Origin: a plasmid
Sequence record: NZ_CP073098.1
DNA: 21,217 bases
Strand: one strand, 5' to 3'
Position numbers and translations under genes: made by a program. The notes below the pieces were generated by a model. The model saw only the letters and a list, made by a program, of their open reading frames with translations. It was not told the DNA's origin and did no database searches. Shown piece after piece: positions 2,265 to 14,580 of this stretch (the first letter of the stretch is position 1; the number at the start of each line of letters is the position of its first letter).

Positions 2265-2323
2265 GGAAGCGTCCTTCTTCTCTGTGGCGCGCGCCGCTCA
2301 TGATGCTGTTAAAGAGTTTGAGA

Positions 2324-2428
2324 AGACTCCTCCAGTCTTGCGTATGGTAAACATTGTTTACAAAGTGTCGATTAAACAATTCTATCGACAGTCCCAAGAG
2401 TGGCAGCAATAGTAAACAATGTTTACCA
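2324..2428. promoter_or_regulatory. Operator/promoter cluster with 15-bp palindromes GTAAACA-N-TGTTTAC (two copies) and two further inverted repeats
   Basis: Palindrome copies at 2347..2361 and 2412..2426. Inverted repeat TGTCGAT-N11-ATCGACA at 2366..2390. Inverted repeat AGACT-CCTCC-AGTCT at 2324..2338. All lie between the divergent membrane-protein and RHH genes. Confidence 0.5.
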
Positions 2429-2453
2429 TGCTGCCAAGGAGAGGATACTTCAT

Positions 2454-2717
2454 ATGAAACAAGGACCCCACCCTTCCGGACGTGTGGTGTCTGTACGGAT
2501 GCCAGATGAAATCATTGAACGACTCGACGCTCTCTGCGATAGGACAGGACGTAGTCGAGGTTTCTACTTAAAAATGGCTATTACAGCCATGCTTCCCAAA
2601 CTAGAAGAATTCCATTGGAATCAAGTGGCTGCAGACTTCGAAGAGAAGACAATCAACAACTTGTTTAACCAAATAATGCTCAACGGGCTAAAAGACGAGC
2701 CCGAAGAACAAGGGTGA
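2454..2717 (+). CDS. Ribbon-helix-helix (CopG/Arc/MetJ-like) DNA-binding protein
   Basis: ATG at 2454 with AAGGAGAGG RBS. The RHH core pattern is beta strand RVVSVRMPDE, then helix IIERLDALCDRTG, then helix SRGFYLKMAITAML. Confidence 0.7.
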   Translation: MKQGPHPSGRVVSVRMPDEIIERLDALCDRTGRSRGFYLKMAITAMLPKLEEFHWNQVAADFEEKTINNLFNQIMLNGLKDEPEEQG

Positions 2718-2845
2718 CTCCACTAATGCCTTAGGTTCCGAGCAAGCTTCATCAAAGCAAACAGCCGATAAGGCTTCTTGGCAACAGCCGCCACCATTAC
2801 TAAATCTCCCAGTAAGTCACACTGATGTGATTTAATAGGCGGAGA

Positions 2846-2946
2846 AAATAAAAAGCCGCACCCCACACTCGTGGGGTGCGCAGCGCGAGCGGCACACACC
2901 CTCGGTTCAAGTCCAGGGCGCGCACGTTACCCAAGATATGGGTAAC
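2846..2946 (-). ncRNA. Predicted countertranscript (antisense RNA, about 100 nt) complementary to the repA leader
   Basis: Minus-strand intrinsic terminator: 10-bp GC stem CGCACCCCAC/GTGGGGTGCG (plus coords 2858..2881), loop ACTC, then UUUUUAUUUU (plus 2846..2855). Minus-strand -10 TATGAT at plus 2954..2959. A 5' stem-loop GUUACCCA-UAUCU-UGGGUAAC lies at 2926..2946. Confidence 0.35.
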
Positions 2947-3092
2947 CCCCGCATCATAGAGTTGGCGCTCTAGCGGGGGTCCAAAACAAAACGACACCGA
3001 CCGTGTCGGTTAAGACTCTACCACTTCCACACGGACAGTGAGCAAAGCACAACACGGGCGGTGTCGATAATCCGAAAGGAGACTACGGCACC

Positions 3093-4052
3093 ATGCAGCC
3101 CCCACACACCCCAGACGAGTGGCGCACCAAACTCGAAGCAGCCAAAGAACTAGCCCGCCGGCAAGAACACGACGCCGCACAAGAACTCCTCCAAGCCCAA
3201 GACGTCGGCTACACCTCCAAACTCTTCGTCCAAGCACTCTTCCCCTACCGCAAAACCGAGGGAAACAACCGCACCGTCGAAACACCACAGGGAACAATCA
3301 CCATCCTCTCCCAACGAGGAGTCCCCTACGGCAAGTACCCACGCCTCATCATGGCCTACATCATCACCCGCGCCGTAGCTAATGCCGGACGCCTCAAAGA
3401 AGGCAAAATCACCCACGAAGAAGCCTGCCGCATTCCACTAGGCCACTCCATGAGCCACTTCCTCCAAGCAATCGGCATCACCGGACGCGGCACCGGCGGA
3501 GCAACCGGAAACCTGAAAAATATCCGCGAGCAACTCCTACGCATCGCAGGATCTTTCATCACAGTCCAAAGCGACGACGGGGTTCACGCACGCGGACACA
3601 ACACCCAAATACTGGAAGACTGGAACCTCTGGTTCGACTCCCGCGACCCCAACCAGGGAAGCTTCATAGAATCAGAACTAGTACTCACTCCCCAATTCTT
3701 CAAGCACATTGCCGAAGCGCCTATCCCCATCGACCTCAACGTCCTGCGCGAACTCAACAAACCACGTTCGATGGATATTTACATTTGGCTCACCGTAAAG
3801 CAATACTGGCTGGCGAAAAACAACCGCGAAACTTATACCTTCACCTGGGGCATGATCGCTGCCAATTTCGCCACCTCAGAGATAACCTCTACGGCCCAGA
3901 TGCGAGACTTTAGACGACGCACAAAAGAAGCAATAGAAGAAGTTGCAAAGGTATGGCCCTACTCGGGAATTGAAGCCGACACAGACGGAGTAACGGTCAC
4001 GAGAACTGCCCCATCAGTTCAGCAGAAGCCACATCGCCCCGAACTCGACTAA
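3093..4052 (+). CDS. repA: Plasmid replication initiator RepA (theta-type, iteron-associated)
   Basis: 319-aa ORF with AAAGGAG RBS at 3068. The C-terminal winged-helix-like segment (PIDLNVLRELNKPRSMDIYIWLTVKQYW) is typical of plasmid Rep initiators. Iterons and a DnaA box follow immediately downstream. Confidence 0.8.
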   Translation: MQPPHTPDEWRTKLEAAKELARRQEHDAAQELLQAQDVGYTSKLFVQALFPYRKTEGNNRTVETPQGTITILSQRGVPYGKYPRLIMAYIITRAVANAGRLKEGKITHEEACRIPLGHSMSHFLQAIGITGRGTGGATGNLKNIREQLLRIAGSFITVQSDDGVHARGHNTQILEDWNLWFDSRDPNQGSFIESELVLTPQFFKHIAEAPIPIDLNVLRELNKPRSMDIYIWLTVKQYWLAKNNRETYTFTWGMIAANFATSEITSTAQMRDFRRRTKEAIEEVAKVWPYSGIEADTDGVTVTRTAPSVQQKPHRPELD

Positions 4053-4107
4053 ACCGAACGCAGAAGACTAGCGCCCTCCGGGGCGCTTTCTTTTTACCCA
4101 AAACAGC

Positions 4108-4342
4108 TTGCGCATATTTACCGATACGCCTGCGCATATTTACGCATACGAAAAAAGGGCCTGCGCATAAGTTGACACACACGCCTGCGCATAAGTTGAC
4201 ACATGACAGGTTTTCCCAGTTCAGGATGCGCATAAGTTGACACACGCAAAATAGCCCTGCGCATAAGTTGACACACGCCTGCGCATAAGTTGACACACGC
4301 CTGCGCATAAGTTGACACACGCCTGCGCATAAGTTGACACAC
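4108..4342 (+). repeat. Iterons: 7 full and 2 degenerate copies of a 22-bp unit (g)CCTGCGCATAAGTTGACACAC, including 4 perfect tandem copies at 22-bp phase
   Basis: Full copies at 4160, 4184, 4227, 4256, 4278, 4300 and 4322. Degenerate copies TGCGCATATTTAC at about 4109 and 4130. Confidence 0.85.
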
Positions 4343-4350
4343 AAAGATAC

Positions 4351-4359
4351 TTATCCACA
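4351..4359 (+). promoter_or_regulatory. DnaA box TTATCCACA (perfect consensus), adjacent to the iterons; followed by an AT-rich stretch with CTATATCCC direct repeats (about 4390..4420)
   Basis: Exact 9-mer match immediately 3' of the last iteron. Confidence 0.4.
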
Positions 4360-4755
4360 GGGTTTCACCTGCGGGTTCACCTATTTTCCCAGGTCGCTTA
4401 TAACTATATCCCTGTAGATCTATATCCCCAGCCGATCAACCAACAAAACCGTTCACTACGGGTTACGGTCTATGCTCCCGCCTCGCCTTGCGGCTCGTTG
4501 GGCTGCCGCCCAAATCAATAGATTTGGTTGCCACCACACACCCCACAACAACCGCACTCCTTCCACCCGCCGCGTGGCCGTTGTATCTCCTAAACTCTTG
4601 GACAAAGAAAAAGAGCGGCAAAGAATCAGAAAAAGGTAACTAAGTGCCCCAAGGACGCTACATCGACGACCCACGCTTTAGACGCGACCTCGAAGACATT
4701 CTAGCGCCTAGAAGCCCAAGAGGTCACGTCTCCACTAGAGCTTGGTTCCTCAATC

Positions 4756-6191: not shown

Positions 6192-6857
6192 ATGGGCTTT
6201 TTAGAAAACCTCCGCAACCGCTACACCCCACGCACACCGGGCAAACCAGTCTTTGCCGTCATTGACACCGAAACCACCGGCTTTAACAAGCGCTACGACC
6301 GCATCATTGAAATCGCTGCCGTGCGCGCAGACAGCCACTTCAACCCCATCGACTCCTGGCACACACTGCTCAACCCTGACGGCAAGACCATTAAAAACTC
6401 CCACATCCACGGCATTACCAACGACATGGTGACAACCGCCCCAACGTTTAGCGAAGTATATGGCGACTTCACTAGCTACATCGACGGCATGCAGCTATTC
6501 GCGCACAACGCGCCGTTTGACTCAAAAATGATCGTTTCTGAGGTCGACCGTATGACCGGTGGAGACGATGACGAGGACGAGTTCTTCCCGTTTATTGACA
6601 CCATTGACCTTGCCAAGCAAATACTCGACCGTGGCCCCTACAACCTACCGGCACTCCTTGACCGCCTGGGACTGGACAATCCTGACGCCCACGCAGCAGT
6701 AGCCGATGCGACCGCCACAGTGAACATGCTCCACGCCCTCTTCGGGTCTCAGCGCGGCGAAATAGGACGCCAAATCCTGCACCAAGGCCAAGCATTCCAC
6801 GCCACCAACACCTGGCGTACAAGCCACGCCACCCCACTGCTCCCCCGCAACATATAG
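6192..6857 (+). CDS. DEDDh-family 3'-5' exonuclease (DnaQ / DNA pol III epsilon-like)
   Basis: Exo I motif VIDTETTG, Exo II motif HNAPFD, Exo III motif HAAVADATAT (H-x4-D). Confidence 0.85.
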   Translation: MGFLENLRNRYTPRTPGKPVFAVIDTETTGFNKRYDRIIEIAAVRADSHFNPIDSWHTLLNPDGKTIKNSHIHGITNDMVTTAPTFSEVYGDFTSYIDGMQLFAHNAPFDSKMIVSEVDRMTGGDDDEDEFFPFIDTIDLAKQILDRGPYNLPALLDRLGLDNPDAHAAVADATATVNMLHALFGSQRGEIGRQILHQGQAFHATNTWRTSHATPLLPRNI

Positions 6858-9846: not shown

Positions 9847-10827
9847 CTAGTTTTGGATCTCTTCTTGGCGAAGCTGATCGAAGACGCTACCGGCGTAATC
9901 CTCGTCGAGGATGAAACCGTTGTCGGTTTCTTTGAGAACTCCTTCTTTGACTCTGCGATCCCACCACATGATTAAGGATGCGAGCGTGTAGCCGAGTTCG
10001 TATTTCTGACCAGGAACTATAAATGAGTTCTTCATGAGTTCTGGGAAGGTTAGTATTTGTCCTTCTCGGCCTCCGTTGGCAAATGTTTCAGGATCGTGTT
10101 GGGGCTCAATATGCTGAACAATCCAGTACACAACGTCGTAAAAGGTTCGACTTTCAGGGCTATTCTCGGTGATTATTGGATTTAAATCTTTGGTGATGAG
10201 CTCTGTAGCCTGCTTTAAAAGCTTTTCGATTCCTGGTGTTGGAGTGGCAGATATCGCCTTTCGGAGAGGTTCAGAAAGTGAGCCATATCGAACACCATTG
10301 ATCCCGATGTTATCCGGCTCTGCATCTTCAACCGTTTCTTCTTGGTCTGGGTAGGGGCCTAGCTTAGACAAGAATGCGTCGACTGATTCTGCAACGGGCA
10401 TGATGATCCCATCGGGATCGGTATCCACGTACAATACGGCGCCTTCTGGGAAATCTGGCAAGCCGTAGTTAATGACAAAGCATTGATGCATTCCGTCTTC
10501 GCTAGCAGCCAAGAGAAGGACTTCTTCGGGAATCTCCCACTCATCCATAAGGAAGGTTGCGTAGTCAATCAAATCAACATGAGCGCCATTGCTTGCTGTG
10601 CCGTTGCCGAAGATATCTTCAACAACGACCTCCAAGGTGTCCCCATCAGGCAGGGAAATATCTGTAAGGAAGCATTTTTCTAGGTTGAGGATGCCGCCTC
10701 CAGTTTCTGAAAGCAGCATCTTGTAATCATCAGGTAGCTTTTTGCCAAGCTTGCTTTCAAATTCAAGGATGCGTTGACTGTCTGCTGGCTGTGCAGTGTA
10801 CTCAAAAAGGTTGGCGTAGTTTTTCAT
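9847..10827 (-). CDS. SUKH-1 (SMI1/KNR4) family immunity protein with an extra C-terminal domain of unknown function (326 aa)
   Basis: N-terminal signature ILEFESKLGKKLPDDYKMLLSETGGG (ExxLG..LP..Y..L....GG). It sits 9 nt downstream of the toxin gene stop. Confidence 0.8.
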   Translation of the reverse strand: MKNYANLFEYTAQPADSQRILEFESKLGKKLPDDYKMLLSETGGGILNLEKCFLTDISLPDGDTLEVVVEDIFGNGTASNGAHVDLIDYATFLMDEWEIPEEVLLLAASEDGMHQCFVINYGLPDFPEGAVLYVDTDPDGIIMPVAESVDAFLSKLGPYPDQEETVEDAEPDNIGINGVRYGSLSEPLRKAISATPTPGIEKLLKQATELITKDLNPIITENSPESRTFYDVVYWIVQHIEPQHDPETFANGGREGQILTFPELMKNSFIVPGQKYELGYTLASLIMWWDRRVKEGVLKETDNGFILDEDYAGSVFDQLRQEEIQN

Positions 10828-10836
10828 GATTGTCCT

Positions 10837-13800
10837 TTACGATTCGAGGGGTTTACTCCATAAAGCATATCCACCGGTATGTCGCACCTGTTGGTGGAGT
10901 TCCTTTGGTATTAGCTGCATGCGATTTTCGTCTTCGTGGTGGTGCCAAACAAGTTCATGCTTCTTACGATATTCACGATCGATTCCGAACTGTTTATCTG
11001 CTTGACGGATGTCTTTCCAGCTTTTTCCTGTGGGTTTTTTAAGTTTGATGTCCCCAACACCCTGTGTCGGGTGTGTATGTACATGCTTGTCAAAAACTGG
11101 AAAACCGCGTTCTGTAAATCGAATGTCCCCGTATTTTTCATGGAATCCTGGTGGCATCTTAGCTGGATCACCATTTCGCCAAATCCCGTCTGCAAATTGA
11201 GCGTTGATCGGATAGCGGTTAGATGCTCCAACTCTTTTGACAGTCGAGGGATATTTGCACTTGGAAGCAATGGTTGCGTAGGAGTGTGCTCCTGGCGCTG
11301 GAGTGTGGTACACACCTGAGCGAATGGTCATATGCTGGTTTCGGTAAGTAGCAACTCCCAGTCCAGCACAAGCGGCTGGTATTAGTGCGTCGTCGAGTGC
11401 AGCTTTGACCGGAGAATATTGAATAGCGCGTTTAATGGCGCCAGTTTTTCCAATCAGCTTACGGATTGCAGGTATAGCCTTGATGAGCTTTCCTGCTTTT
11501 CCTATAGGAAGTAGGCCGACTGCTGTCCATAAACATCCCGACACTTCACCGTGGAAGCATTTTAAGACATCGGTAACGCCAATGAGATCAAGGATGAGGT
11601 CTAGGCTTTCTTTTCCAATAGCGTCTTTAATTTTCTGTAAAACGCTTGTTGGTTCCGTTTTTATAAGGCCTTCGGCTTTTGCTGAGCGGGCTTGCTCTAG
11701 TTCTGCCATTTCTTTTTCCCAGGCGGCAAAATAAGCGTCATTAGCAGCTTGGGATGCTAAAGAAGCATCTTGCCCTGCAGCGTTTGCTGATTGACGTGCA
11801 GAAGCTGCGGACGTAGCCGCGGCCTGTGCCGCTGATTGTGCAGTCGCTGCGTAGGACGCAGCTTGATCTGCATTGGATTCAGCCTGATTTGCATCTGCCT
11901 CTGCTGAATTTGCTGCCTGATGGGCTCGCTGTTGTTGTTGGAGAGCGAAGGAAAGTGCTTTATCAGCAGACGCAACATGATTTTGAGCCTGTTGCGCTGA
12001 TTGCTGTGCGCTTCCTGCCCAACGTTGAGCTTGACGTGCATATTCTGCAGCGCGCTGCGCGTCACCAGTTGCCTGTTTGTGCGCCTGCTGAGCATTAGCT
12101 GCTTGTTGTGACGCTATTTCTGCGGCATACTGTCCAGCACTGAGTAAAGCGTCTATTTCTGCATTATGAGCATTGCGTTGCTCGTCCAGCATCGCACGGC
12201 GATACTGCTCAACTGAGATGAATTCATTGAGCTGCTGGCGATCGCCAGTAACTGCCGCCTCAGCTGCAATCTTTACTTCTTCACCGCCAGTATCAGTTAA
12301 TGCATAAGCCTGCTGAAGTTGATCTAAGTAGCGGGCTTTTTCGTAGCCTCCCTTGTTGATGAATTCGTCCAACGCGGTAAACGTTCCCTCTTTGAGGGCC
12401 GCGTCAGCTGCAGTTTGAACCTGCGGTCCTGCTTCATCTCTTAAAGCCCAGGCTTGTTCAATAAGTCCAGGAATACGCATTTCTGGAACTGTCACGTTGA
12501 CGAATTCATCGATAGTTACGTCATCTTCATAGCCGGCTTCATCAGCAGCGTTACGTATTTCTTCGTTGGGATCGTTCAGTGCCCAATGGCTGACTAGATT
12601 TAGGTTGTCTTCATATACTGCATCTGGGTATGCATTAAAAGCATATTCAATAAGGTCTTCTTCATTGTTTCCCGAAAGTGCCACTTTGGCTGCCCCTGCT
12701 ACAGACGGGGTACCAACCTGCGCCGCGCTTAGCGCAAGTTGGCGAAGATCAGATATTGCGTTTTCGGAAGGAGTAAATTCGCTTTCGTCGGCTGGAAGAG
12801 AAGAACGTATCTCTTCCATTTTCTGAGTTAGATCATTTCTGCGTTGTTCTTCTTGATTCCTATTTGCGTCTGTGGTGTCTTGAACTTCGCGTGCAAGTCG
12901 AGCTTGGTCTTTAAGGAAATCCCGTTCTGTGCGAAGTCGTTCTTCGGCAGCGGTTAATGCTTGCTCGTGGATAGATTTAGCAAGCTGGATGTTGTTTCGT
13001 GCTCGTTCTGCAGATTCACTAGAAAGCTGAGCGTGTTGCCCTGCAAATTGTGCTGCATAGTGAGCATTTCCTGCTTCACGAGCAGCATCATCTGCTGCTC
13101 GTGCTGATTTTTCGGCATGCTCTGCAGCTTCTCTAGCAGCTTTGCGGGTTTGCTCTACCAGGCTACGGATAGTGGCGACTATCCGGTCAACTTCGTTAGC
13201 TGCTGCCCTGGCACGTCCTGCTGCTGCTCTAGCGCGTGCGGCGCCTGCGCGAGCTTCATTCGCCGCCTGCTGGCTAACGCCTGCTGCATTAGCTGCATCT
13301 GAGGCTGCAGCTGCGGCTGCGTCCGCGTTACGGGCAGCTGATCCTGCTGCCTGACCTGCAGATTGAGCATGTCCTGCAGCTTCCTCCGCGTAGCGATAGG
13401 CCTGTTGGGATTGTTGTGCAGCCTGGGCTGCATTGCGGGCATTCTCGGCAGCTACCCGCGCCCCACGTGCTGCAGCGGCATCGTAAGCTGCAGCATTTGC
13501 GGCAGAAGCTGCTTGTGCTGCTGCGGACTGAGCGCGAGCAGAAGCTGCCGCAGCTCTTGATAAAGCAGCAGCAGTCTCTTGAAGGGCAGCTCGCGCCTCA
13601 TGAGATGCGGCTACAGCTTGATCTGCCATATTGGCTGATTGAGTAGCTAATTTTCCAGCTGCTGTTGCAGCATTACCTGCTCTTTGTTGCGCAGAATCTG
13701 CTGCTAAAGCTTCATCGCGTGAACGTTCTGTTGCAACTCGTGCAGCTTCTGCGGCTCGCGCTGCACGATCCGCTTGCATCCATGCTTTGTTATTTTCCTC

Positions 13801-14580
13801 TGTAGCTGTCTTAGATTCTTTAATCGTAAGATCTACCAGTTGGGATACCGTCATATGCTCAGCATCTTGATCAGCGGCCACATACTGCCCATAACGAAGA
13901 AATTCGTCAATTGCTGTATCTGTGCCAATTCGGAGTGCCTCAGATGCGTTCGCGGAAACAGTTGGTAATTCTGAGTCTACGAGCTCGTAGACTTCCCTGC
14001 GCTTATCGTTTGCCCGAGCCTCATCCTCACCCTGGGCGGCAAATTCACTGAGAGCTTCTACTGTGTCCTCGCGCAGAGCTTTATCAGCAGCGGATTTTAG
14101 ACTTGTTCCTTCTTCAGCTTGAGCTGCCTGCCACGCTTGAGCTCTATCGTCTTTACGTTGAGCTTCTTGCCATCCAGTATCAATAAACTTGCTTATCTCA
14201 TCAGTCGAACCCGATTGAAGGAGACGATTTGCTTGCTCTTGTAGCTGCTGTCCACCAACTGTTGACAAGGTAGTAAGTATTTGGCGCAGATCTTGTAGCT
14301 GTGCTTCTTCGCGACCGCCATTAACATACGCAGACCACTCGTGTTCCGATCCGCTTAGTGCAGTAATTGCTGCTTGACGCGAAGACTCGAAAGAAGTATC
14401 GAGCATGCTCACCGCGAAGTCACGTGCGTCTTGTTCTTGTAGAGCTTGCTCGGAAACTCTTAAACTGTCAGTTTGAGCTATAGCATTTGCTGAAGAAAAC
14501 GTTGTTCCCAAGATAACTGCAAGTAAGACGCAAACAATGCGAACCATTTTTAATTGCAGAGGAGTTGTTTTGCGTGGCAT
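10837..14580 (-). CDS. Secreted polymorphic toxin: Sec signal peptide, ALF-like repeats, two Ala/Gln-rich helical blocks, pre-toxin region, and a C-terminal WHH-type HNH/EndoVII nuclease domain
   Basis: 1247-aa ORF. N-terminal signal MPRKTTPLQLKMVRIVCVLLAVILGTTFSSANAIAQ. Seven [AT][LI]xEF[ILA] repeats, e.g. TAIDEFLRYGQY, TALDEFINKGGY, QLNEFISVEQY. C-terminal HELVWHHHEDENRMQLIPKELHQQVRHTGGYALW. Confidence 0.85.
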   Translation of the reverse strand: MPRKTTPLQLKMVRIVCVLLAVILGTTFSSANAIAQTDSLRVSEQALQEQDARDFAVSMLDTSFESSRQAAITALSGSEHEWSAYVNGGREEAQLQDLRQILTTLSTVGGQQLQEQANRLLQSGSTDEISKFIDTGWQEAQRKDDRAQAWQAAQAEEGTSLKSAADKALREDTVEALSEFAAQGEDEARANDKRREVYELVDSELPTVSANASEALRIGTDTAIDEFLRYGQYVAADQDAEHMTVSQLVDLTIKESKTATEENNKAWMQADRAARAAEAARVATERSRDEALAADSAQQRAGNAATAAGKLATQSANMADQAVAASHEARAALQETAAALSRAAAASARAQSAAAQAASAANAAAYDAAAARGARVAAENARNAAQAAQQSQQAYRYAEEAAGHAQSAGQAAGSAARNADAAAAAASDAANAAGVSQQAANEARAGAARARAAAGRARAAANEVDRIVATIRSLVEQTRKAAREAAEHAEKSARAADDAAREAGNAHYAAQFAGQHAQLSSESAERARNNIQLAKSIHEQALTAAEERLRTERDFLKDQARLAREVQDTTDANRNQEEQRRNDLTQKMEEIRSSLPADESEFTPSENAISDLRQLALSAAQVGTPSVAGAAKVALSGNNEEDLIEYAFNAYPDAVYEDNLNLVSHWALNDPNEEIRNAADEAGYEDDVTIDEFVNVTVPEMRIPGLIEQAWALRDEAGPQVQTAADAALKEGTFTALDEFINKGGYEKARYLDQLQQAYALTDTGGEEVKIAAEAAVTGDRQQLNEFISVEQYRRAMLDEQRNAHNAEIDALLSAGQYAAEIASQQAANAQQAHKQATGDAQRAAEYARQAQRWAGSAQQSAQQAQNHVASADKALSFALQQQQRAHQAANSAEADANQAESNADQAASYAATAQSAAQAAATSAASARQSANAAGQDASLASQAANDAYFAAWEKEMAELEQARSAKAEGLIKTEPTSVLQKIKDAIGKESLDLILDLIGVTDVLKCFHGEVSGCLWTAVGLLPIGKAGKLIKAIPAIRKLIGKTGAIKRAIQYSPVKAALDDALIPAACAGLGVATYRNQHMTIRSGVYHTPAPGAHSYATIASKCKYPSTVKRVGASNRYPINAQFADGIWRNGDPAKMPPGFHEKYGDIRFTERGFPVFDKHVHTHPTQGVGDIKLKKPTGKSWKDIRQADKQFGIDREYRKKHELVWHHHEDENRMQLIPKELHQQVRHTGGYALWSKPLES

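Follow-up and report, generated by a model that had tools for sequence, protein, structure and literature searches.

A conserved, structured repA leader with a predicted antisense RNA in an iteron-type plasmid of Corynebacterium

For plasmids of Corynebacterium, antisense control of rep is already established. In the sections of PMC9592669 and PMC13088423 that deal with such plasmids, it is described for pGA1 and pCG1/pCGR2 and, within the genus, for unrelated rolling-circle plasmids of this kind only. There, the rep leader encodes a small RNA on its minus strand (the countertranscribed RNA [ctRNA] of pGA1 and CgrI, encoded by cgrI, of pCG1/pCGR2), and mutation of the promoter of these RNAs raises the copy number (the same sections of PMC13088423, citing Okibe 2010 and Venkova-Canova 2003, and of PMC9592669). 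For the pTP10/pCRY4 family, replication has so far been described solely through RepA and iterons (PMC3350403, PMC2830990), and an antisense RNA in this family was not described in the papers found in our literature search. Here, a stretch of 21,217 nucleotides (nt) from a plasmid of this family (sequence record NZ_CP073098.1; the whole stretch is called the window below) was analyzed, and the leader of its initiator gene, repA, is the subject of this report. We consider it an evenly balanced question whether this leader controls repA at the RNA level, as a conserved module with a predicted minus-strand RNA that ends at the first leader hairpin, H1.

Outside the genus, four groups of systems resemble the locus in part. 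In pMV158, a small gene for a ribbon-helix-helix (RHH) protein, CopG, lies 5' of rep, an antisense RNA (RNAII) lies between the two genes, and control is translational (PMC4485353, PMC5717011). CopG is co-transcribed with repB and represses the shared promoter, and RNAII covers the repB translation-initiation region. In pIP501, with CopR and RNAIII, the map order is a small repressor gene, a long leader with an antisense RNA of multiple stem-loops, and rep; an attenuator forms on the plus strand when RNAIII binds, and the initiator belongs to the RepR family. CopR is a helix-turn-helix protein, not an RHH protein. In R1 (CopB and CopA-CopT) and the IncB/IncI-alpha plasmids, a stem-loop of the leader, 5' of the ribosome-binding site, is the target of the antisense RNA, which acts via RNA structure and does not cover the SD (Shine-Dalgarno sequence), and in R1 an upstream repressor gene is co-transcribed with repA (PMC5717011). 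These plasmids have no iterons, and their control depends on translation of a leader peptide (tap, repY) or on an activator pseudoknot. Finally, the REx-C/REx-R elements of Pseudomonas PFP plasmids are control modules of about 300 nt before rep with three stem-loops; in REx-C, a putative antisense promoter lies inside the last stem-loop and the terminator is formed by the first (PMC5304414).

The locus described here differs from each of them. From pGA1 and pCG1/pCGR2 it is set apart by an unrelated Rep protein and by iterons, which those rolling-circle plasmids lack, and no sequence similarity to them was found. REx belongs to another phylum, other Rep families, and other sequences, and REx-C has a leader-peptide gene. 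In contrast to the leader-peptide systems (tap of R1, repY of IncB/IncI-alpha, repI of REx-C), no leader open reading frame (ORF) is conserved in frame here. The sole leader ORF (3061-3153, GTG start, 30 amino acids [aa]) was rejected as a leader peptide, because it crosses 3082-3086, where indels of -1/+1 nt shift the frame. By analogy, the mode of operation would be closest to that of R1 and IncB/IncI-alpha, in which the antisense RNA acts at a distance through mRNA structure, and the organization resembles that of the exchangeable REx-C modules (PMC5304414).

For the comparison, 122 related loci, designated L with a number, were obtained from plasmid records, species-representative genomes, and metagenomes. 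The leader was recognizable in 88 of 123 sequences, the window included, which gave 82 unique versions. As shown by their comparison, the leader has a predicted fold of five conserved hairpins, H1 (2857-2880), H2 (2883-2923), H3 (2926-2946), H4 (2946-2979), and H5 (2992-3008), together with a long-range helix (LR). Fold z-scores of the leader are about -5.5 to -6.0 overall, with -6.03 for plus-strand positions 2846-3008. RNAalifold on a MAFFT alignment recovered the structure only in part. Because H1 and H3 were misaligned by MAFFT, H3 was read by eye and a hand-specified structure of H1, H2, H4, and H5, without H3, was used for the covariation test on 72 distinct leaders. Both-sided changes were found at 16 of the 39 tested pairs, compared with 4.0 ± 1.4 in shuffles, of which 0 of 500 reached the observed number; slid controls gave 4 to 9 such pairs. 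Of all cells, 95.6% were paired. Folding and covariation in related plasmids, which the first-pass annotation of this stretch had named as a check on its own proposal, thus back the structure.

The single hairpins have the following features. On the minus strand, H1 is an intrinsic-terminator-like hairpin (2845..2880), in which a stem of 10 pairs (2880..2857), 8 of them G-C, encloses the loop GAGT and is followed by GC and then by the U tract UUUUUAUUUU at 2854..2845. Both-sided changes occur at 5 of its 10 pairs. The antisense RNA would have its 3' end at H1, which on the plus strand is the leader's first hairpin. H2 has an outer stem, GCGCG/CGCGC, an inner stem, CCCT/AGGG, and the loop G-TTCAAGT-C (2905-2913). 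It is the most conserved segment of the leader, with 45 nt identical in 55 of the 82 unique versions. H3, an 8-bp stem with a 5-nt loop (GTTACCCA / AGATA / TGGGTAAC), exists in at least four fully compensated forms, namely, GTTACCCA/TGGGTAAC, TTCCTCA/TGAGGAA, TTCCCA/TGGGAA (L020), and TCCCTAT/ATAGGGA (L028). H4 consists of the outer stem CCCCCGC/GCGGGGG, a bulge, ATCA, the inner stem TAGAG/CTCTA, and a hexaloop. Its outer stem covaries to CCCCTGC/GCAGGGG and CCCCCTCGA/TCGAGGGGG, and the only mismatches in it occur in the pLEW279b and L028 lineages, where a plus-strand C.A corresponds to a G.U pair on the minus strand. H5 (minus-strand stem 3008..2992, CGACAC/GTGTCG) is followed by the tract UUUUGUUUU (2991..2983), so that 3008..2983 again resembles a terminator. 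In 9 of 11 representative leaders, H5 and its U tract lie 78 to 102 nt 5' of the ATG, with three unrelated stem sequences.

The leader is also better conserved than the gene that it precedes. Its identity to the window averages 91.2% at the nucleotide level, compared with 82.6% for repA, and it is the better conserved of the two in 49 of 53 loci; leader and repA identities are uncorrelated (r = 0.17). This parallels REx-C, which is better conserved than the rep genes that it serves and is exchanged among them (PMC5304414). With a control module of the proposed kind, both the higher conservation of the leader relative to the initiator gene and its reassortment with diverged repA alleles would be accounted for. 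In Rfam, no family reached the gathering score anywhere in the window, and a search of 2780-3110 at E ≤ 10 gave chance hits only. Thus, even if the antisense RNA were nonexistent, the leader is an undescribed and strongly constrained cis-regulatory region that is missing from Rfam.

The distribution of terminator-like and promoter-like elements between the strands points to a minus-strand RNA. Terminator-like hairpins with U tracts were found on the minus strand only; on the plus strand, there was none in the window leader or in 11 representative leaders. Transcriptional attenuation was rejected on this basis, and with it the analogy to pIP501 that had been drawn in the first-pass annotation. 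As is general for ctRNAs, an intrinsic-terminator-like site (H1 with its U tract, 2880..2845) would end the antisense RNA before the candidate sense promoter. H1 and its U tract are kept in the window type and in L020. In the pLEW lineage, from which H1 is missing, as it is from L094, a U-rich tract directly follows H2.

A candidate antisense promoter lies further upstream on the same strand. The extended -10-like element TGGTAGAGT (3023..3015, minus strand, with its hexamer at 3020..3015) would direct a start at about 3008, the first base of H5. At this position, TAnnnT is found in 73 of the 82 leaders (TAAAGT, TAGAGT, or TAAGGT, with TGG preceding), and on the plus strand no alignment column has TAnnnT in at least 40% of leaders. 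Between ATG+150 and ATG-115, the hexamer is the sole minus-strand TAnnnT common to all 12 of 12 representatives of seven lineages, which read TAAAGT, TATGCT, TATAGT, or TATGAT there while their flanks have diverged. Downstream of 3023, no conserved minus-strand -10 was found. An antisense promoter inside the repA start, from which the RNA would cover the Shine-Dalgarno sequence (SD), was likewise rejected, as no conserved minus-strand -10 occurs there.

The plus strand, in turn, offers structures on which such an RNA could act. Just 5' of the ribosome-binding site, 2992-3005 pairs with 3053-3066 (LR; 2992..3066, plus strand) in 13 of 14 bp, with 47 nt enclosed. LR is the minimum-energy fold in the window and, with unrelated sequences, also in L003 (19 bp), L118, L094, and L107, which makes five lineages with the window. 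It is mutually exclusive with H5. In an alternative hairpin (3060..3092, plus strand), GGTGTCG (3060-3066) pairs with CGGCACC (3086-3092), so that the SD (GGAG, 3078-3081) is held in the loop of 19 nt and the stem has the ATG (3093) at its foot. Across leaders, the pair 3064:3088 is mostly U.G, with C-G in about 10, U-A in 3 or 4, and C.A in 1. In the pLEW279b lineage, the LR 3' strand can pair with TGCCACC just past the ATG. Both structures emerge from the comparison of leaders. A translational switch made of LR and the SD hairpin is plausible; the ribosome-binding site would be open when LR is formed and closed when the LR 5' strand is occupied.

In the mechanism that we propose, a cis-antisense RNA would be transcribed from the minus strand and end at the H1 terminator near 2848. 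With the most likely start, near 3008 from the element at 3023..3015, it would be about 160 nt long and carry the complements of H5, H4, H3, H2, and H1. Transcription may also, or instead, begin near 2946 from a TATGAT hexamer, and the two starts might be used side by side. Initial contacts with the mRNA would be made by the loops of H2 to H4, after which the U tract 2991..2983 would pair with the mRNA A tract as a toehold. Because the 5' end of the antisense RNA nearly matches the LR 3' strand, it could compete for the LR 5' strand and capture it. The freed 3060-3066 would then pair with 3086-3092, a hairpin would enclose the SD and ATG, and less RepA would be translated. This RNA layer would act alongside the iteron-based control. 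The predicted RNA (at most 3008..2848) stops at least 69 nt short of the SD and leaves both SD and ATG uncovered, whereas the ctRNA of pGA1 overlaps both the start codon and the promoter of rep (PMC9592669). Because the ribosome-binding site is uncovered and an attenuator is lacking, the locus is only loosely analogous to pIP501 and pMV158 and is not a member of either system; the likeness to pMV158 stated in the first-pass annotation fails on the missing overlap with SD and ATG.

Several observations weigh against this mechanism. After correction for composition, the plus strand folds better than the minus strand (z = -6.03 versus -4.83). By raw folding energy, 67 of 67 leaders have the more stable fold on the minus strand, but this measure was rejected for the choice of strand, because the z-scores do not favor the minus strand and its advantage reflects G+U-rich composition. 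Likewise, G.U cells in H1 number 71 on the plus strand versus 31 on the minus strand, and the commonest state of the pair 2860:2877 is G.U on plus (38 of 60 leaders), which is C.A on minus. H1 itself is deleted in the pLEW279b and L094 lineages, and no clear U tract follows H2 in L094, L118, and L028. H5 and its U tract come right after the start at about 3008 and resemble a terminator, which could stop the RNA at about 27 nt; the same elements may instead be the 5' hairpin of the antisense RNA and its U-rich toehold. Antisense loops usually diversify, whereas H2 is nearly invariant. In addition, two plasmid contigs of one C. curieae isolate, L012 and L013, have leaders that are 93% identical, with an identical H2 and a flipped H4 loop. 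Such co-residence would be unexpected if the RNA were a main incompatibility determinant, as REx-C is for its plasmids.

The placement of the repA promoter is not secure either. Its candidate, as judged from the sequence, is at 2817..2836 on the plus strand, where the palindrome TCACA-N4-TGTGA (2817-2830), a possible operator, overlaps the motif TGTGATTTAAT (2826-2836). The motif is near-invariant, with one T/C position varying among the 12 leaders of alignment A1, and resembles a corynebacterial extended -10 but has no A at -11. In pTP10, the palindrome is perfect (ATCACACCGGTGTGAT). Transcription of repA would, by prediction, begin near 2843.

Many of these points would suit a purely cis-acting leader that has no functional antisense RNA and in which repA translation or the stability of the mRNA would be governed by the hairpins themselves, together with the alternatives of H5, LR, and the SD hairpin. 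The T-loop-like motif of H2 might then be recognized by a host factor or by RepA, and the minus-strand "terminators" and -10s would be by-products of A-rich linkers and palindromic sequence. We regard such a leader as a serious rival explanation, with the probabilities leaning against it. Besides the better plus-strand z-score, it is favored by the G.U pairs, which prefer the plus strand in H1 and inner H2, and by the H2 of L067, L094, and L096, which form a series from C-G through U.G to U-A that passes via plus-strand U.G. Both LR and the SD hairpin belong to the plus strand, and so do their wobble intermediates. Near-invariance of H2 fits a sequence-specific partner better than the specificity loop of an antisense RNA, and near-identical leaders share one strain (L012/L013). 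However, a cis-acting leader alone leaves unexplained why hairpins with U tracts are confined to the minus strand, in two conserved places where the stems covary and the U tract stays, and why the sole conserved canonical -10s are on that strand, one of them kept in seven lineages with diverged flanks. It also does not account for the extension of H2 to 11 bp, which is reached through four G.U pairs on the minus strand only and is kept in L028 through changes that do not restore plus-strand pairing, or for the free inversion of the H4 loop.

This inversion is a recurrent event. The H4 hexaloop (2962-2967) occurs in both orientations, as TTGGCG and as its reverse complement, CGCCAA, with similar frequency (alignments A1/A3). 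In the complete plasmid L005 (NZ_CP069515), the whole of H4, the 4-nt bulge included, is inverted (L005:2131-2164). For the antisense mechanism, inversions of the loop or of the whole hairpin would be neutral, because the hairpin is present in both sense and antisense RNA.

The inversions also show that the DNA hairpin forms at least occasionally, and the leader could be read as acting at the DNA level, through cruciforms, single-strand initiation or transfer signals, or inverted repeats that bind RepA or DnaA. The region is indeed rich in palindromes, TACCAC and TTCCACA resemble DnaA boxes, and insertion sequence (IS)-like insertions have three independent junctions at about 2925. Nevertheless, we consider a role of this kind highly improbable. 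The stems vary freely in sequence while the pairing is kept, and the frequent G.U pairs (38 of 60 leaders at 2860:2877) fit RNA rather than duplex DNA or protein sites. LR pairs with SD-adjacent sequence, which is sensible in RNA only; the leader is kept in non-mobilizable plasmids; and the true DnaA box, like the iterons, is found downstream of repA. Within the leader, candidate DnaA boxes match at 6 of 9 positions only and were rejected. An iteron-derived RepA operator at H5 was rejected as well, as covariation between H5 and the iterons is lacking: in L020, the window's iterons are combined with a different H5, and in L094, the window's H5 with different iterons.

The IS-like junctions themselves were found in L044 (1440-1460), L046 (1425-1445), and L016 (50-75), at the equivalent of about 2925 in the window. 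They differ from each other and have IS-like ends (GTTGCAACGACCC..CTAGAA..). In all three, the entire sequence 5' of H3 is replaced, with loss of H1, H2, and the candidate repA promoter, and the part from H3 to repA is kept.

A further reading would take the leader beyond a routine ctRNA target. The H2 loop G-TTCAAGT-C fits the T-loop consensus of tRNA (G53 T54 Psi55 C56 R57 A58 N59 Y60 C61), with an acceptor-like GCGCGCA after it. It is not a tRNA gene, as ARAGORN finds no tRNA or tmRNA gene there, and Rfam gives no match. A T-loop closed by an acceptor-like GC stem might read tRNA, RNase P, or a T-loop-binding protein. At the same time, the recurrent inversion of the H4 loop or hairpin might switch the kissing specificity of sense and antisense RNA in one step, and such a flip might let sister plasmids with otherwise identical modules (such as L012 and L013) escape each other's antisense RNA. 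That H2 is read by a host factor and that H4 is a kissing switch, taken jointly, seems decidedly unlikely to us.

For the antisense RNA, the first-pass annotation had put forward a more specific model, in which an RNA of about 100 nt with two stem-loops runs from a minus-strand TATGAT to H1 and an upstream RHH protein serves as a Cop-type repressor, as in pMV158 and pIP501. The sequence features on which this model builds are confirmed. The minus-strand terminator is present with its 10-pair stem (2880..2857), loop GAGT, and U tract to 2845, the hairpin of 8 bp and 5 nt at 2926-2946 is perfect, and an RHH gene with its own palindromes lies upstream. The layout of a leader between the RHH gene and repA stands, with a length of 375 nt rather than 376. 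The TATGAT hexamer also exists, although at 2958..2953, one base off from 2954..2959. A minus-strand RNA in the leader gains from the strand-specific terminators and -10s, but the exact transcript does not.

The conservation of this hexamer seems at first to favor the proposed start. It reads nAnnAT in 79 of 82 leaders (TATGAT in 36, GATGAT in 41, TATAAT in L107), the predicted start near 2946 is the first base of H3, and the resulting 101-nt RNA folds well (z = -5.83 for 2946..2846) and ends in the best terminator of the region. H5 and its U tract, just upstream, could insulate the TATGAT promoter. However, the hexamer lies in the bulge and inner stem of H4, so its conservation cannot be separated from that of the covarying hairpin and is not independent evidence. 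It is inverted together with H4 in L005, and L118 has TATGAC. The hexamer has no TG extension, and the nearest -35-like hexamer, TTGGAC, is 20 nt away and not workable; a convincing -35 was seen for neither of the two minus-strand -10 candidates. The fold of 2946..2846 has three stem-loops instead of two. An RNA from this start would remain at least 130 nt from the SD, with no plus-strand attenuator to act on, and the RNAs of L012 and L013 would be almost identical. Judged from conservation, the extended -10 at 3023..3015 is the better supported candidate antisense promoter. The position of TATGAT within H4, the second minus-strand hairpin with U tract (3008..2983), and LR had not been mentioned in the first-pass annotation.

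The part assigned to the RHH protein is also doubtful. The RHH gene (2454..2717, plus strand; 87 aa; PF01402, E = 1.4e-6) was scored in the 64 loci whose leader is complete and whose upstream sequence is long enough. In 37 of these, the gene stands at a fixed distance from the leader and has 96 to 100% aa identity, so that the order RHH gene-leader-repA is kept with fixed spacing; it is missing from the other 27, pTP10 among them. In L006, L009, L090, and L092, it is truncated and the replicon is retained. Thus, RHH is absent from or truncated in many replicons that look functional, and it is dispensable, in contrast to CopG. Two perfect 15-bp palindromes of the form GTAAACAnTGTTTAC (GTAAACAtTGTTTAC at 2347-2361 and GTAAACAaTGTTTAC at 2412-2426) bracket a promoter-like site, TCGACA-17-AATAGT (2385-2413), before the RHH gene and are probably the protein's own operators. 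No further copy was found within the window at ≤3 mismatches, and an RHH operator near repA was rejected on this basis. Whereas CopG represses the promoter that it shares with repB, the palindromes here are at the RHH gene's own promoter only and not in the repA-proximal region. The RHH protein is also unlikely to be the ligand of TCACA-N4-TGTGA at the candidate repA promoter, because plasmids that lack the RHH gene have this palindrome as well as plasmids that carry it. As the RHH gene and the leader are not separated by a terminator, co-transcription is possible; an influence of RHH on repA could come only by this route.

By sequence, the RHH protein is a generic member of its class; among solved relatives, 6xrw_B ranks first (E = 0.0024), and RelB-like antitoxins are matched only below the curated cutoff. 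The initiator differs as well, being iteron-type RepA_C, unlike that of pMV158, and combined with an RHH protein, unlike the RepR-family initiator of pIP501. Taken together, the RHH gene is probably a self-regulated accessory neighbor rather than a core part of the circuit. Dual control by an RHH repressor and an antisense RNA is therefore not borne out, with RHH absent from 27 of 64 loci, truncated in four, and its palindromes only before its own gene, and the exact model as first proposed is unlikely. The RHH gene is 96 to 100% identical in protein and 97.9% in DNA across plasmids whose repA is just 74 to 93% identical, which suggests that the RHH-leader segment has spread recently by recombination.

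With a conserved RNA-level control module, a second control layer would be added to an iteron replicon, where only iteron control had been described. In clinical corynebacteria of skin and mucosa, plasmids of the pTP10 family are carriers of multidrug resistance (pTP10, pJA144188, and plasmids of C. striatum, C. diphtheriae, and C. aurimucosum) and are abundant in human skin metagenomes. The module would also provide a handle for copy-number engineering of theta-type corynebacterial vectors, comparable to cgrI in pCG1 vectors as presented in the relevant section of PMC13088423, and a compact typing marker for pTP10-family plasmids.

The assignment of the window to this family is clear. The source plasmid is from Corynebacterium; positions 2300-4400 match 14 plasmid records, 13 of Corynebacterium and 1 of Winkia, and 2813-4400 is 90.9% identical to pTP10 of C. 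striatum (NC_004939). By these similarities and its sequence signatures, the region is a replication-control module, and the plasmid that it serves is an iteron-type theta plasmid of the IncW-like (pTP10/pCRY4) family of corynebacteria. All three features of the IncW-type iteron theta replicons of corynebacteria (pTP10/pCRY4/pKW4/pJA144188) were found, namely, the initiator signature, the iterons, and the similarity to pTP10. The repA gene (3093..4052, plus strand, ATG at 3093) encodes an IncW-type replication initiator of 319 aa (RepA_C, PF04796, E = 8.6e-97) with 79 to 91% nucleotide identity to the RepA regions of pTP10 and related plasmids. Its translation contains GVPYGKYPR, the signature of IncW-type RepA/RepW initiators, a family described in PMC3350403.

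Downstream of repA, after a plus-strand terminator at 4070-4087, lies the origin (4107..4359, plus strand), recognized by its sequence repeats. It comprises about eight 22-bp iterons (CCTGCGCATAAGTTGACACACG), two degenerate iterons, and a perfect DnaA box, TTATCCACA, at 4351-4359; eight iteron copies with 22-bp spacing extend over 4107-4342. The array is a hybrid, in which two degenerate repeats of the pLEW279b/L028 type (TGCGCATATTTACC..., 4107-4149) are followed by window-type iterons (TGCGCATAAGTTGACACAC, 4162-4342). The iteron type is independent of RepA similarity, as L020 has the window's iterons at 72% RepA identity.

Two observations concern repA homologues with other upstream regions. 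A repA variant at 66% aa identity (L021-L024, L032, L036, and L110-L114) is unchanged in several species and in Rothia. These loci keep just the last ~90 nt of the pLEW-type leader, and the rest is unrelated, so that H1 to H5 are lacking. In the metagenome contig ERZ1033969.320 (L109:1100-1400), a CRISPR-like array lies directly 5' of a repA homologue without the conserved leader; between the repeats of the array (GGCTCATCCCCGCTCACGCGGGGAGCAC) lie spacers of about 33 nt.

Farther from the module, a gene for a DnaQ/RNase T-type 3'-5' exonuclease lies at 6192-6857, about 2 kb past the origin. A gene annotated as a 3'-5' exonuclease likewise lies downstream of repA in the plasmid of Winkia neuii (L006, 3877-4334). 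On the minus strand of the window, 9847-14580 encodes a 1,247-aa polymorphic toxin with ALF repeats and a C-terminal WHH/colicin-DNase nuclease domain, and a SUKH-1 (SMI1/KNR4) immunity-type gene follows it. The two genes are a plasmid-borne toxin-immunity pair of the contact- or secretion-dependent kind.

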